Assembly: GCA_902788975.1 (NCBI GenBank)
Contig: CADAMI010000012.1
Coordinates: 5,148 to 69,147 of the forward strand
Origin: an uncultured Erysipelotrichaceae bacterium
GTDB taxonomy: Bacteria; Bacillota_I; Bacilli_A; RF39; UBA660
Reading direction: 5' to 3'
DNA: 64,000 nt
Below the pieces are notes generated by a model. The model did not search any database, was not told where the DNA came from, and saw only the letters and a program-made list of their open reading frames with translations. Each line of letters begins with the position of its first letter. The stretch's first letter is position 1. Shown in pieces: positions 31,805-38,772 of the stretch. The position numbers and the translations under genes are program-made.

Positions 31805-32164
31805 TTTTTCATCTCCAAAATAATTATAACACTTATGTCGTTTATTATAAAGTAATATTTAACTTTAAATAAAAAAAAGACTATAAATAATAGTCTATAA
31901 TGCTAAAAAATGGCACGCAGTTATTACTCGTTTGAGAAAAAAATCGTGTAAATGAAATTTGAGACTAAGCTCAATTACATATTAAATATATCACATTATA
32001 GGGTAATAGTAAATACTGGAATCTGATAAAATGATAAAGTTGATAAAATGATGAGTGGGACATTGATTTTTATGAGCTCTATTTGATAATAATTTAAGTC
32101 CATACCTAATCCCACTAGTTTTAATTGAAATATAAAGAAAAATTACAATTATAATCCCACAACA

Positions 32165-32190
32165 GTGGGACAATTTTGCATGTGCAAAAT
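32165..32190. repeat. Site A: GGGACAA + perfect 18-bp palindrome ATTTTGCA-TG-TGCAAAAT
   Basis: Read directly: gtgggacaattttgcatgtgcaaaat. Lies in the 590-nt intergenic region upstream of the ligase gene. Confidence 0.55.
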
Positions 32191-32397
32191 AAGTTTGATA
32201 TCACACTCTTCCTTATGAAATAAGTAAATATTAAGTGTATAGATATCATTCTCTTATGCTCTTGTAAAATTATTCAATAAATTTAATAATTTGTGGGATT
32301 TAAATAATTTAAGTATAGTACTGAAAAAAAGCTGATTTTATGCTATAATAGAATTTGTAAATACTTTTGATATTAATGCAAAGAGCGGGGGATTAAA

Positions 32398-34119
32398 ATG
32401 GATAGTATTAATAAAAGTAAGTATGATTACTTGCTAGATCAAAACAAAAATTATATGGATTTAACAGCACTTTCTTTTGGTGAAAGAAAAATAACTTATG
32501 AAGAAATGCATGATAGAATTGAGAAATATGTAAGATTATTATATGCAAAAGGAGTTAGGCAAGGTGATATAATTGGTATTTGCGCTTTAAATACTCCAGA
32601 GTCTGTATATCTTATTTATGCTTTGGATATAATAGGTGCAATAACTGTTGGATATAACTTTTTTGATAACAAAGAGAAAATTAAAAAAGATATAGAATTA
32701 ACAAAGCCAAAAATGGTTATAACTGTTGATATGTTTTATAGTAATTTTAAAAAGTGGGAAAAGGCACTAAATTTCTCCACAATTTTGTATTCACCAGTTG
32801 AAATGATTGATGATAAAAAATTAAAAATTGGTTACAGGTTATTGCAATTAAAAAATGGTAATTTTAAGTTATCAAGAAATAGTTATTTGAAAAAATTGTT
32901 AGAAAAAGATTATTCGGATGTAGAATATATTAAAGCTCCATTTGTTCAAGATGGTCTAACTGATATACTATTTACAGGTGGATCAACAGGATTTCATAAA
33001 GGAGTTGAATTAACAGATAATGGTTTAAATGCTGTTGTTGATGGAATGACTGAACAGTTCCCAGAAAAACCTGGATTTGTTCATTTAGGAAATATTCCTT
33101 TCGGTTCTATGGCATATGGAAGATCAATTTTGCATTATGCATTATGCAATAATATGGAGTTTGCATTAACATTAAAAGCAATGCCAAGTGATTTCTATGA
33201 AGAACTTGTTAGAACTCATGCTGAAGGTGCTGTAGGAGGCCCACCACACTGGGTATCATTAATCGAAAAAGATGGGGAAGGATTTATACCAAATAAAAAT
33301 ATTAAACCAGGTTCTTTATCAAGTTTACGATATGCAACATCTGGTGGTGAAGCAAGAAAAGAATCAACAATAAATGCTATTAATGAAGCTTTAAGATATG
33401 GTGGCAGTGATGCAAGACTAGGTGATGGTTTAGGTGCAACAGAAACTTGGGCATGTATGATAATAAACAATGCAAGAAACACACATAGAGATACATTAGG
33501 TTATCCTATTAAAAGACTAGATGTTAAGCTAATTGATTCCACTACAGGATTAGAAGTTGAAAAAGGAAAAAAAGGATTATTATATGTTTCGGGTCCAACG
33601 ATAATGCGTAGATATTATAATAATCCTGGTGAAACTGATAAAGTTATTGTATATGACCAAAATGGTAAGAAATGGCTAAATACAGGAGATATAGTTCAAC
33701 AAACTGAAAAAGGTGATTATATTTATGTTGGACGACAAAAAAGAAACTTTGTTTCAGGATGTGATAATATCTATCCAGAAGAACTTGAAAGTTTATTGGT
33801 AACAATACCAGAAATAAGAGAATTAGTGGTGACTCCAATATCAGATGAAATGGTTCAATATATTCCGAGATATCATATATCATTATATAGTATGGATATA
33901 GATTTTAAAAATTTGGAAGAAAAGATTAATTCATTAGTTATGAAACATTTAAATGAGAATTGGTTGCCTGGATCAATTGTGTATTATGATAAACCACTTG
34001 AAAGAATGCAAAATTCAAAAGTAAATATATCGTATTATAGAGAGCAAGATGAGAAAGCACTTGCTAATGGCAAAATAGATCATACTAGTGCAAAAACATT
34101 AAGATTAACGAAAATATAA
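32398..34119 (+). CDS. AMP-dependent synthetase/ligase (acyl-CoA / acyl-AMP ligase family)
   Basis: AMP-binding motif FTGGSTGFHKGV. The YGxTE-like GATETW and later GD.V...GR motifs are consistent with the adenylate-forming fold. Confidence 0.75.
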   Translation: MDSINKSKYDYLLDQNKNYMDLTALSFGERKITYEEMHDRIEKYVRLLYAKGVRQGDIIGICALNTPESVYLIYALDIIGAITVGYNFFDNKEKIKKDIELTKPKMVITVDMFYSNFKKWEKALNFSTILYSPVEMIDDKKLKIGYRLLQLKNGNFKLSRNSYLKKLLEKDYSDVEYIKAPFVQDGLTDILFTGGSTGFHKGVELTDNGLNAVVDGMTEQFPEKPGFVHLGNIPFGSMAYGRSILHYALCNNMEFALTLKAMPSDFYEELVRTHAEGAVGGPPHWVSLIEKDGEGFIPNKNIKPGSLSSLRYATSGGEARKESTINAINEALRYGGSDARLGDGLGATETWACMIINNARNTHRDTLGYPIKRLDVKLIDSTTGLEVEKGKKGLLYVSGPTIMRRYYNNPGETDKVIVYDQNGKKWLNTGDIVQQTEKGDYIYVGRQKRNFVSGCDNIYPEELESLLVTIPEIRELVVTPISDEMVQYIPRYHISLYSMDIDFKNLEEKINSLVMKHLNENWLPGSIVYYDKPLERMQNSKVNISYYREQDEKALANGKIDHTSAKTLRLTKI

Positions 34120-34150
34120 GAAGCAATTCTTATATTTTTATTTACGGAAA

Positions 34151-35984
34151 ATGTCAGAATATGATATAATTATCTCGATACTAGGAGATGATAATATGAT
34201 GGGAGTTGGAGCACATTTTTCAATTTGTTCGTTTATTTTCTTGGCAATATTGTCATATATTTATTTTTTAAAGCCAAAAATTAATAATGCTGAAACAAAT
34301 ATATATGGTAAATTATTAATTTTGACATTAATAGGATTATTCTTAGAGGTGGCAACATGTATATGGTATGTATGTGGAGTAAGTTTAGATAATATAGTAT
34401 ATCAATATGCTTCAAAGTTAACGTCAGCATATTATATGGTATGGACAAGTTTATTTGCAAAGTATGTTTTAAATATATGTAATGTTAAAAAAGAAATTAT
34501 TAAAATAGCAAATATCATATATATTATTTGTTTTGTAGTAATTATATTTTTACCAATATCATATATTATAAACGATAATTCAATAGTGCCTACAGGTCCA
34601 TCAATTTTCCTTACATATTTTGCATGTATTGTAAATACTGTGATGGACATAATATTATGTATAAAAAATAGAGATAAAATATCTGGAAAGAAACTAACAC
34701 CAGTTTATTCATTATTACTAATTGGAACGATATGTATAGTTGTGACAGATTTATTTCCTGAAACATTTCTTATTGGTTTTCAATTTGTATTAATAATTTT
34801 TATAATGTATTTTACAATTGAAAATCCTGATATTAAAATGGCAAAAGAATTAGAATATCAAAAACAATTATCTGATGCTTCTTCCAAAAAAACTTTAGAA
34901 TTACTTGAAGATCTTTCGAATGATTTGAAATCATCTGTAAGAAAACTAGAACAATTTGGAAATAAGAAAATAGATAAAAATAATATTGATGAATTGAATA
35001 AAGAATTAACTGAATTTATCTGGTATTATTGATCTTGCTATTGTTAAAGGGGATTCAAAAGTTAGTGAATATAAATATGAAGTTAAAGATATGTTAGATA
35101 AATTACAACAATTAATAATGGTTGAAAATGAGAATGATAATAGAAAGTTAAACATAGAATTAAGTAATAATATTCCAAATGTTGTATATGGTGATGAAAG
35201 CAATGTAATCAAGATAGTTTTATATTATTATAATTTAATTTCATCATTAACCAATAGCAAAGAAATGACAATGAAAATTGAATGTATTCAAGTTGGTAGA
35301 TTTGCAAGACTAAAGTTTAACTATTTAGTTAATGAATCTTTAATCAAAGATTACATTTATAAAGAAAAGGATACAAACGAATTACAATTAGTTAAGAGTG
35401 ATGATGTAAATTATCAAATAATAGTAAATTTGTTGAAAAAGTTTAATGGGAAAATGATAGTATCAAATCAAAATGATGTTGTTTCAATATCGTTATGCAT
35501 TAATCAAAGATTATTAACTGAATATGAAATAATAAGTAATAAAGAAGAAAATAAGAATATTAAAGTTACATATAACGATTACTCTGGTAAAAGAATTTTG
35601 ATAGTTGATAACAACAACTTGAATATTAAAGAAATGAAAGTATTATTGAATCCTTACAATGTTGAAGTGTTGTCAGTAAATACTCCTAATGAAATGTCAG
35701 AAGTTCTTAGTGAAAATGAAACCTTTGATTTGATTTTTGTCGATGACATTATTCCTAACTTTAAATTAGATGATTTTACTAATGAAATAGTTAGAACAAA
35801 AGACGATTTCTTAAGGCATATTAAAGATAATGCAAAGTATCCAATACTATCAATTATTATGGTAAATCCTAATAATGAAAACATGGAACAAAAATATTTG
35901 AATTATGGATTTAGTGATTATATAGTAAAACCAATAAATAAAGCAAATTTAGATAAAATATTAAATAAATATTTTAAGAAATAG
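34151..35984 (+). pseudogene. Frameshifted, His-less paralog of the hybrid histidine kinase at 27639
   Basis: Two ORFs (34151..35032 and 35091..35984) align colinearly with the kinase (IENPDIKMAKELE vs MENPDLKYIDELN; NIELSNNIPNVVYGDESNVIKIVLYYYNLIS vs NVQVVGNIPNTLMGDEVKIYQILMNILSNAV). The second frame stays open upstream, and IIDLAIVKGDSK continues the alignment, implying a single 1-nt frame break near 35020. The H box SHEIRTP is replaced by LEDLSNDL. G boxes are absent. The REC-like C-terminus retains DLIFVDD. Confidence 0.5.
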
Positions 35985-38082: not shown

Positions 38083-38130
38083 AAGAGGAGACAGTAGCAC
38101 ATATAAGTCTATATACTACTGACTCCTCTT
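38083..38130 (-). terminator. 15-bp inverted repeat (aagaggagacagtag / ctactgactcctctt) followed by a T-run on the minus strand
   Basis: Lies immediately upstream of the recombinase RBS and downstream of the small minus-strand gene. Terminator or recombinase regulatory hairpin. Confidence 0.4.
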
Positions 38131-38247
38131 AATAATTTAATATTATAAATATATCCTTTGCTTTTTATCATCGGTGTACCTCCATTTCTAGAGAATACCT
38201 CTTTCATTGGTTATTTATAATATCACTTTATTTAGTTTTGTCAATAG

Positions 38248-38529
38248 TTAGCAACTTTTAGCTAGTTTAAAGTAGTTTTCAAGTTCAGATAAATTGTGTT
38301 TTTCATGCAAGTTATTAATATAAAAATCATCGATACCATTGAAGAATAAGAAAGTATAATTATTGATTATTACCTTATGAGGATCTACATAAGCAAGATT
38401 ACTAGGTTCTAACTTAATTAAATGACCTTTCTCAAGTGTTATAGGAGTGGAAGTATATTTACTTGCCCAATTTATTTTCTTCTTTAAATCAGGACTTAAA
38501 TCAAGTTTTTCTTTAATAATATTTAACAT
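38248..38529 (-). CDS. Hypothetical small protein (93 aa)
   Basis: RBS aaaggtg precedes the ATG. No motif recognised. Confidence 0.4.
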   Translation of the reverse strand: MLNIIKEKLDLSPDLKKKINWASKYTSTPITLEKGHLIKLEPSNLAYVDPHKVIINNYTFLFFNGIDDFYINNLHEKHNLSELENYFKLAKSC

Positions 38530-38583
38530 ATCATCACACCTTTCTTACAACAAAAAAACGAATGGTTCGACGATTATTTCAAA

Positions 38584-38656
38584 TGGCAGGGGATGAGAGA
38601 ATCGAACTCCCAACAGTGGTTTTGGAGACCATTATTATACCATTTAACTAATCCCC
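38584..38656 (-). tRNA. trnW: tRNA-Trp (anticodon CCA)
   Basis: Reverse complement GGGGATTAGTTAAATGGTATAATAATGGTCTCCAAAACCACTGTTGGGAGTTCGATTCTCTCATCCCCTGCCA. 7-bp acceptor stem, T-loop GTTCGATTC, anticodon loop CTCCAAA (U33, CCA, A37), 3' CCA encoded. Confidence 0.75.
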
Positions 38657-38772
38657 TAGGTCGTTTTCTTTATATAATTTATCATAAAAAATGTTATTTA
38701 TCAAGATTTTATGTTAAATTTATATAATATTTTATGTTTAGGTAAATAAAAAATTTCTTGATAATCAAGAAA

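Follow-up and report, generated by a model that had tools for sequence, protein, structure and literature searches.

The 64-kb window of DNA analysed here (assembly GCA_902788975.1, contig CADAMI010000012.1, from an uncultured Erysipelotrichaceae bacterium; all positions are window positions) contains an integrative element of about 6.7 kb, which follows a tRNA-Trp gene and encodes a large serine recombinase, a conserved 93-aa reading frame (orf93) and two cargo genes. Two palindrome-containing units within this element, denoted A and B, are probably inverted copies of a conjugative origin of transfer (oriT), which would make the whole a relaxase-less, recombinase-integrated mobilizable element. 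This assignment draws on the anatomy, boundaries, homology, covariation and gene neighbourhoods that are observed in the window and in the related genome and metagenome loci compared with it (labelled by L-numbers, such as L001 and L011). The two copies are most likely oriT mimics derived from two conjugative-element lineages of the same habitat.

Anatomy of the paired units

Palindrome A (ATTTTGCATGTGCAAAAT) lies at 32173-32190 and palindrome B (ATTTTGCACTTGCAAAAT) at 36144-36161, each with arms that are perfect 8-bp repeats. A preliminary description of this DNA had placed two exact palindromes here, and the window has no other match even if up to two mismatches are allowed (0.18 expected), so that no further copy lies upstream of another window gene; a literature search with the palindrome sequence returned irrelevant matches only. 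The same description took the sites to be in the same orientation and to share a GGGACAA box, and neither point was upheld. Homology between the two sites extends over about 130 nt, and a profile of it places A on the plus and B on the minus strand, which makes them inverted copies. GGGACAA is not enriched, the window having four copies where 2.9 would be expected; it overlaps palindrome A by 1 nt but is separated from palindrome B by 4 nt. In unit A it is the 3' arm of the upstream hairpin and in unit B the complement of the 5' arm of the long hairpin, and since these are non-homologous parts of the two units, the apparent sharing is fortuitous.

The units, located with an nhmmer profile, are about 130-200 nt each and face inward into the cargo. 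Copy A, of the GATATC hairpin type, spans 32153-32283 on the plus strand (90.9 bits), and consists of a hairpin (32155-32170), the palindrome, a long hairpin (32197-32247) and the tail TCTCTTATGCTCTTG (32250-32264). Copy B, of the GTCCCT hairpin type, spans 36053-36182 on the minus strand (89.1 bits) with the same succession of parts: hairpin 36179-36164, palindrome 36161-36144, long hairpin 36139-36085 and tail TCTCTTATGCTCTTG 36084-36070. The profile matches nothing else in the window.

Metagenome contigs were scanned for the pattern TTTTGCANNTGCAAAATRAGTTT, which yielded at least 120 stretches with the unit from rumen and gut; 106 distinct copies were aligned, and all counts over 106 below refer to these. 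The parts follow a constant order. A short hairpin, accompanied by box repeats that differ with the type, precedes the hairpin TTTTGC-ANNT-GCAAAA; then come the motif TRAGTTTG, a long hairpin of about 50 nt whose sequence is lineage-specific, and a conserved, single-stranded tail, CA-NTC-TCTTAT(G/C)CT, which is outside the search pattern. The dinucleotide that the preliminary description had regarded as the palindrome centre is held in the loop of the TTTTGC-ANNT-GCAAAA hairpin, and reads AG, TG, AT, TT or AA. Five GTGGGA boxes surround copy A (32055+, 32110-, 32155-, 32165+ and 32293+; cluster 32055-32298) and are candidate sites for an accessory protein; such boxes also flank GATATC-type copies elsewhere, while the other hairpin types carry other boxes.

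The outer stem of the long hairpin covaries at all six of its six pairs, with 96.9% of the alignment cells paired; at one example pair the combinations are AU in 46 copies, UA in 32 and GC in 20. The covariation score is 0.391, compared with 0.131 in shuffled alignments (0 of 500 reach 0.391) and at most 0.14 in slid controls. In 83 of the 106 copies the motif strand gives the more stable long hairpin, and G.T pairs outnumber A.C pairs by 33 to 14; together these indicate that the hairpin forms on one strand of the nucleic acid.

Relaxase context and putative nick region

Copies of the unit occur in two contexts. In the first, represented by about 20 loci among the matches listed, a co-oriented copy follows the end of a serine recombinase gene at a distance of 61-176 nt (mostly 61-120). 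The window has this arrangement, with the end of the gene 79 nt from palindrome B; its end beside this site had been recognised earlier. In the second context, represented by at least 12 loci (among them L074, L076, L099, L134, L137, L138, L140, L144, L146, L158 and L171), a copy is located just upstream of, and co-oriented with, an operon that encodes a 105-aa protein and a relaxase of 425-430 aa. Most of these loci have the end of an M23 peptidase gene 57-122 nt ahead of the copy, and a 140-aa gene in front of the one for the 105-aa protein; on the upstream side there is also a gene for a VirB4-like ATPase, and on the downstream side one for a coupling protein. The Pfam assignments are Relaxase PF03432 at 38 bits (cut-off 24.6), T4SS-DNA_transf PF02534 (E 7e-72), the TraG P-loop and Peptidase_M23. 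The best NCBIfam match of the relaxase is MobP2, below threshold, and the 105-aa protein is faintly like the ribbon-helix-helix region of NikR in NCBIfam. Copies in the relaxase context occur without a recombinase nearby and in loci without orf93. Judged by sequence, a unit of this make-up upstream of a relaxase operon is in the classical position of an oriT.

The MOBP nick region has the consensus (C/T)ATCCTG(C/T), with a more variable inverted repeat upstream (PMC3772185). The unit has this layout, with a variable inverted repeat directly 5' of the conserved tail, and CATTCTCTTATGCTCTTG, following the long hairpin, is its putative nick region. The tail reads TATCCTG(A/C/T) in 24 of the 106 copies and TATGCTC in 80, window copies A and B included. 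In one metagenome locus (L159, 598-1200) the tail of a copy (CTCTTATGCA) runs directly into an open reading frame that clusters with serine recombinases; this junction could be a rearrangement at the presumed nick region.

The type of hairpin tracks the lineage of the relaxase. One clade of relaxases (77-100% identical) has hairpin GTACCCAT and a second (82%) has GATATCACAC; a third clade (72%) has either GTCCCTAT or GACCCCAT, and GGTACCAC belongs to a distant one (46%). The window copies fit into this scheme at two different points: about 200 nt around copy A are 80-84% identical to the gap upstream of the relaxase in GATATC-type loci (L076, L144, L164 and L103), and about 200 nt around copy B are 78-79% identical to the corresponding gap in GTCCCT-type loci (L172 and L134).

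Several observations weigh against an origin of transfer. The window copies read TATGCTCT (TATGCTC), two substitutions away from the canonical ATCCTG. The unit points toward the relaxase operon, whereas the strand that classical MOBP and MOBF plasmids transfer leads away from the relaxase (bioRxiv 10.64898/2026.01.13.699239), so that either the strand assignment or the analogy with MOBP may be off. At one locus (L078) the unit adjoins a distant relaxase in divergent orientation. Copy A (blastn) and the relaxase (tblastn) are without a match in 72,556 reference plasmids, and there is accordingly no tie to an experimentally proven oriT; a comparison of the relaxase with solved structures gave no match. 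The invariance of the palindrome among copies is in part a product of the search pattern, and the strand asymmetry and covariation of the long hairpin would suit a structured RNA equally well. The candidate helpers are seen in metagenome contigs of similar habitats, the host genome being covered for 64 kb only, and the element in the window has two private deletions (see below) and may be decaying.

Paired copies are a recurrent feature. Two related loci, L011 and L012, contain the same two palindromes, one about 80 nt past the recombinase stop codon and the other 1.2 or 2.6 kb further on, with unrelated genes between them, which confirms the earlier proposal that the sites bracket exchangeable cargo. 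The two copies converge in 12 of 13 two-copy loci; where the hairpin type of both can be read (window included) convergence is complete (12/12), and 11 of the 12 pairs combine one GATATC-type with one (G/T)TCCCT-like copy. Where the recombinase is more distant (55-78% identity), the 6-12 kb of sequence available for the element show just one copy, and the pair is thus a trait of this lineage and not a requirement. At L088 (1347-1673) an inward-facing pair has only about 144 bp between its tails, which leaves the cargo slot almost empty. With two copies that differ in hairpin type the element would have access to two helper lineages, and only inverted pairs may persist because transfer from two origins on the same strand would initiate at one and terminate at the other, truncating the element. 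If the motif strand is the one transferred, both origins lead into the cargo, which would then enter the recipient first with either helper; this depends on the uncertain strand assignment, the classical leading region pointing away from the relaxase.

A more ambitious interpretation, which we consider possible but unlikely, is that the paired inward oriTs form a purpose-built cargo-first module, in which the conserved flanks (possibly via strand joining by the relaxase at the nick sites) act as cargo-exchange points between hitchers and conjugative elements. Exchange of this kind would explain the unrelated cargo found between the same two units in close relatives.

It is improbable, in our judgement, that the unit is instead a structured RNA, acting either as a small RNA or as a leader with control over the genes that follow it (the relaxase operon, or the cargo in the window). 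Such an RNA would account for the strong covariation of the long stem and for the excess of G-U over A-C pairs; some subfamilies also end in a terminator-like hairpin followed by a T-run, and a promoter-like TTGAAA-N-TATAAT is present just upstream of GATATC-type copies. However, a promoter-like element is also present downstream of the unit, before the genes, and neither the promoter scan (61 matches against 57.8 expected in this AT-rich DNA) nor the terminator scan rose above chance, which makes statements on promoters tentative. In a scan of the window with Rfam 15 only the tRNA-Trp passes, and no family is placed over A or B at E <= 1. The unit is kept beside unrelated cargo in relaxase-less elements, as expected of a cis-acting transfer site but not of the leader RNA of a relaxase operon, and copy B is antisense to the window cargo. 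The relaxase nick core in the tail of 24 of the 106 copies, the position of the unit and its covariation with the relaxase lineage all suit an oriT better than an RNA.

The integrative element and its insertion site

The integration target is an intact tRNA-Trp (CCA) gene (38584-38657, minus strand; ARAGORN, and Rfam tRNA at 61 bits). Homology with relatives in unrelated contexts starts at the tRNA CCA and ends at a conserved distal block, and the element therefore spans approximately 31911-38583 (about 6.67 kb; minus strand in recombinase orientation). At the tRNA-proximal, attL-like junction (38559-38595, minus strand), CATCCCCTGCCA is joined to TTTGAAATAATCGTCGAACCATTCG. Conservation upstream of orf93 starts exactly at the tRNA CCA in elements located at tRNA-Trp, in those at tRNA-Gly and in tandem arrays, where the preceding element ends in a short mimic of the tRNA end. 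The target follows the lineage of the recombinase, being tRNA-Trp for the lineage at 94-100% identity and tRNA-Gly(TCC) for that at 84-86%.

The distal block (about 90 nt; 31911-32000, minus strand) ends in ...AACTGCGTGCCA, and its last bases mimic the 3' end of the tRNA. Its final stretch is ...GCGTGCCA in elements of the Trp type and ...TTGCTCCA in those of the Gly type, the terminal bases being GTGCCA and GCTCCA, respectively (overall ...G(C/T)(G/T)CCA). It is found at the ends of elements in L011 (twice), L012, L148, L093, L079, L110, L156 and L034; the copies in L011 (14454-14540 and 15311-15400) each follow a different small gene, and that in L012 is at 15503-15568. The block looks like a small transcription unit, since it features an extended -10-like sequence (TGNTATAAT), a TTGAG-N6-CTCAA hairpin and CTCAAACGAG, and is followed by a terminator-like hairpin. 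A tRNA-like or otherwise structured RNA was also considered for the block by eye and was rejected, the pairings being inconsistent between the Trp-type and Gly-type versions. Beyond the block the sequences diverge into a terminator-like hairpin; in the window this hairpin, read from the sequence together with a T-run, lies just outside the element at 31871-31898 (minus strand). An equivalent hairpin directly follows tRNA-Trp at the unoccupied site of L019, and the window hairpin is probably the displaced native tRNA-Trp terminator.

Presence and absence among relatives, which the preliminary description had proposed as a check, could be seen at several loci. The site is unoccupied in L019, a related genome of another species (DUF1015 87% identical), in which 65 nt separate tRNA-Trp from the start codon of DUF1015 with nothing between. 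The sequence after tRNA-Trp in L019 (9936-9970; TTTTAATAATTAGTCGAACTATTCGAC and a T-run) resembles the tRNA-proximal arm of the element (TTTGAAATAATCGTCGAACCATTCG), and may represent either a common attB/attP arm or a scar. Two loci of the same species, L186 and L188, are 99.4% identical up to the tRNA and diverge right after the CCA, where they have another occupant. This is an array without a recombinase (9985-13322), in which CCA is joined to GTAGAATATTT.... Beyond this come genes for proteins of 259 aa and 203 aa, with a GATATC-type copy between the two, then an end block and, after it, a duplicated 3' half of tRNA-Trp (47 nt); the arrangement suggests repeated insertion and decay at a tRNA-Trp hotspot. 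In L023 the 2.5 kb between tRNA-Trp and DUF1015 consist of ordinary genes. About 12 independent, near-identical contigs are all collinear with the window, with the cargo in one orientation. Among contigs of the same species, look-up through DUF1015 gave occupied sites only and look-up through the hydrolase gave the other occupant (L186, L188), and synteny over 17 related genomes was too poor for broad scoring of presence and absence.

The earlier suggestion that the recombinase is part of a mobile element adjoining tRNA-Trp is thus borne out, while the roles proposed for the palindromes as attL/attR halves are not: the element extends from the tRNA CCA (about 38584) to about 31911 and includes A and B, which are for this reason not att sites. 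Programmed excision of the skin or SPbeta type is likewise unsupported, because the insertion splits no gene whose restoration could be achieved by excision; it is intergenic, with the intact tRNA-Trp on one side and the DUF1015 promoter region on the other.

The element would be mobilised in four steps if A and B act as origins of transfer. The recombinase would first excise the element as a circle, with a predicted circle junction ...AACTGCGTGCCA joined to TTTGAAATAATCGTCG... and a restored site ...CATCCCCTGCCA joined to TTTTTTAGCATTATAGAC.... A helper relaxase of the MobA/VirD2 type, together with its small ribbon-helix-helix-like accessory protein, would then recognise the matching hairpin, and the relaxase would nick the tail and pilot the nicked strand through the type IV secretion system of the helper. 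In the recipient the recombinase would reinsert the element at tRNA-Trp.

It is very unlikely that A and B are instead sites at which the adjacent serine recombinase inverts or swaps the cargo, as in an invertible switch or cassette. They are inverted repeats adjoining the recombinase gene, the cargo between the copies varies among close relatives, and the palindrome centres match in inverted orientation in L011, L081, L082 and L088. Nevertheless, the centres differ in the window (AG against TG) and in most pairs, which blocks productive exchange by a serine recombinase; the preliminary description had already argued from differing centres against recombination between A and B, and we agree. 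The centre varies as would a hairpin loop, the near-identical contigs share a single cargo orientation, single copies are present in conjugative elements with no recombinase nearby, and the junctions of the recombinase itself are elsewhere.

Equally little probability is given to the palindromes being only operators of a shared dimeric repressor, for instance the orf93 protein. The perfect 8-bp arms, the sequence invariance across copies and the box repeats nearby would be in keeping with this, and oriT regions commonly overlap promoters under the control of accessory proteins. As a plain operator pair, which was among the earlier proposals, the palindromes would leave the covarying 50-nt hairpin and the conserved tail unexplained; each palindrome is part of a larger structured unit, found upstream of relaxase operons in conjugative elements, including loci without an orf93 gene, and no more copies are present upstream of other window genes. 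An accessory protein may well bind the palindrome, but such binding is compatible with an oriT and is no alternative to it. The least probable reading takes A and B as the terminal inverted repeats of a non-autonomous transposon or cassette inserted in the recombinase-borne element: inward repeats of about 130 nt do flank variable cargo, and the L088 pair is nearly empty, but target-site duplications are not seen, the subtype differs consistently between the two ends, single copies are common beside recombinase genes and in conjugative elements, and the homology to conjugative loci spans the whole intergenic region of about 200 nt.

For the four open reading frames of the element (ligase, kinase-like, recombinase and orf93), Pfam and NCBIfam gave no match to relaxase or type IV secretion families. 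The large serine recombinase (36241-38067, minus strand) is 608 aa long from a GTG start, or 605 aa as called in relatives, and has the domains Resolvase PF00239 (E 1.6e-34), Recombinase PF07508 (E 2.6e-15) and Zn_ribbon_recom PF13408 (E 1.6e-5). The gene is intact and its product shows 100% identity with P0001; rumen and gut assemblies contain many homologues at 83-96% identity. Contrary to the earlier statement, the tRNA-Trp gene is not just beyond the start of the recombinase gene, since the conserved orf93 (38248-38529, minus strand) is between them. This reading frame accompanies the recombinase in L011-L016 and in many metagenome loci; its roughly 300 close homologues are highly alike and belong to no Pfam or NCBIfam family, and it is possibly a regulator or directionality factor. 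Relatives of the recombinase show the conserved module of orf93 followed by the recombinase gene, to which the 84% lineage adds a Mob_Pre relaxase, sometimes in tandem arrays. In the close relatives L013-L016 the Mob_Pre relaxase holds the position of window copy B, and by Pfam there is no Mob_Pre in the window. The leader of the recombinase gene contains a long, near-perfect hairpin (AAGAGGAGACAGTAG...CTACTGACTCCTCTT; 38083-38133, minus strand) that overlaps the ribosome-binding region and may exert translational control of the recombinase; the best promoter-like match of the region (TTGACA-16-TATTAT with TG upstream; 38244-38217) is just upstream of this hairpin.

The cargo between the units consists of an AMP-binding enzyme of the acyl-CoA or acyl-AMP ligase family (32398-34119, plus strand; Pfam PF00501, E 1.9e-43), for which every match to the NCBIfam ligase families was under the cut-off, and a membrane kinase-like protein with a receiver domain (34151-35984, plus strand; Pfam Response_reg only) that lacks a phospho-acceptor His box. 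The sites do bracket a ligase and a kinase gene, as previously described, but the latter is not a decayed gene in general: it is split in the window alone, by a private 32-bp deletion near 35018 between short repeats (GAATTT...ATCTGG), and is intact (606 aa) in L001 and near-identical contigs (six others than the window). Its relation to the neighbouring histidine kinase, of which it had been called a paralog, is that of a distant homologue, with only 24% identity to this 631-aa hybrid kinase (27639-29534) and the same architecture. Another private deletion, at 38559 and about 34 bp long, took away a terminator-like hairpin (CTTAATTCGAAAGAATTAAG and a T-run) between the tRNA-proximal junction and orf93; this hairpin is present in L001 and in all related elements.

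Cargo beside recombinase-linked copies in other loci (L117, L175, L092 and L082) often includes a 421-436-aa protein that appears by eye to be cytosine-methylase-like, with a 461-aa partner, and L012 has a 728-aa AAA_13 ATPase. Both resemble defence systems, in contrast to the window, whose cargo is a ligase and a kinase-like protein. Outside the element, the window contains a single open reading frame of 2689 aa (14536-22605) with no Pfam match on record in precomputed tables.

Relation to known mobilizable elements

Mimicry of a helper oriT is known from the mobilisable genomic islands (MGIs) of Vibrio, which mimic the oriT of SXT/R391. Integrative elements with an oriT but no relaxase, which hitch on conjugative elements, have been termed iOriTs, and large serine recombinases make up less than 1% of the integrases in the iOriT survey (bioRxiv 10.64898/2026.01.13.699239). 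The window element resembles iOriTs in being delimited by att sites, in having its own integrase and cargo but no genes for a relaxase or mating pore, and in a putative oriT that is related to that of potential helpers while the element is otherwise unrelated to them. Its host differs, being an uncultured low-GC rumen spore-former. A second parallel is provided by non-conjugative plasmids of S. aureus that carry oriT mimics of the pWBG749 family, with specificity that has been tested experimentally (PMC8136818, PMC4993578). These too are relaxase-less replicons with short copies of a helper oriT, in which hairpin-defined subtypes match helper lineages; but they are plasmids with another relaxase and accessory system, whereas the window element is integrated and its specificity is suggested by covariation with the relaxase lineage. 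Four features set the window element apart from both iOriTs and the staphylococcal mimics: its integrase is a large serine recombinase, its target is the end of a tRNA gene, it has two inverted oriT-like copies of different subtype around the cargo, and its oriT and relaxase family is without a match in reference plasmids.

With the MOBP origins of RP4 TraI, Agrobacterium VirD2 and H. pylori Tfs4 (PMC3772185) the unit shares the variable inverted repeat 5' of the nick region, ATCCTG in 24 of 106 copies and an adjoining relaxase gene of the MobA/VirD2 fold. The unit differs from them in its mostly TATGCTC tail, in the extra invariant hairpin TTTTGC-ANNT-GCAAAA, in pointing toward the relaxase operon and in the MobP2 match that is below threshold. 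The clostridial mobilisable transposons Tn4451 and Tn4453 are about 6-7 kb in size, are excised as a circle by a large serine recombinase, have an adjoining mobilisation module and insert at GA-dinucleotide targets. Size and serine recombinase are common to the window element, and its relatives L013-L016 have a recombinase gene followed by a Mob_Pre relaxase; the window element itself, however, has no Mob_Pre (MOBV), carries copy B in that position and is integrated site-specifically at the 3' end of a tRNA. The oriT copies of plasmid R6K are of one family. More than one functional oriT per element is reported for R6K and ICEclc, as cited in bioRxiv 10.64898/2026.01.13.699239. In contrast to these, the window copies differ in hairpin subtype, apparently derive from two helper lineages, and are in an element with no relaxase of its own.

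For annotation, a caution arises in that palindromes beside the gene of a serine recombinase are not necessarily its att sites. If the interpretation of A and B as origins of transfer is correct, the recombinase lineages described here would offer a matched set of recombinase, attB and attP for tRNA 3' ends, in Trp and Gly variants. It would also mean that an undescribed oriT family, together with conjugative elements of the MobA/VirD2-like type, is present in uncultured Bacilli of rumen and gut, in which gene transfer is barely known, and that small serine-recombinase elements there do without a relaxase and spread by means of transfer origins copied from two helper lineages. The idea of the oriT-only hitcher would thereby be extended from clinical Proteobacteria and Firmicutes to serine-recombinase elements.

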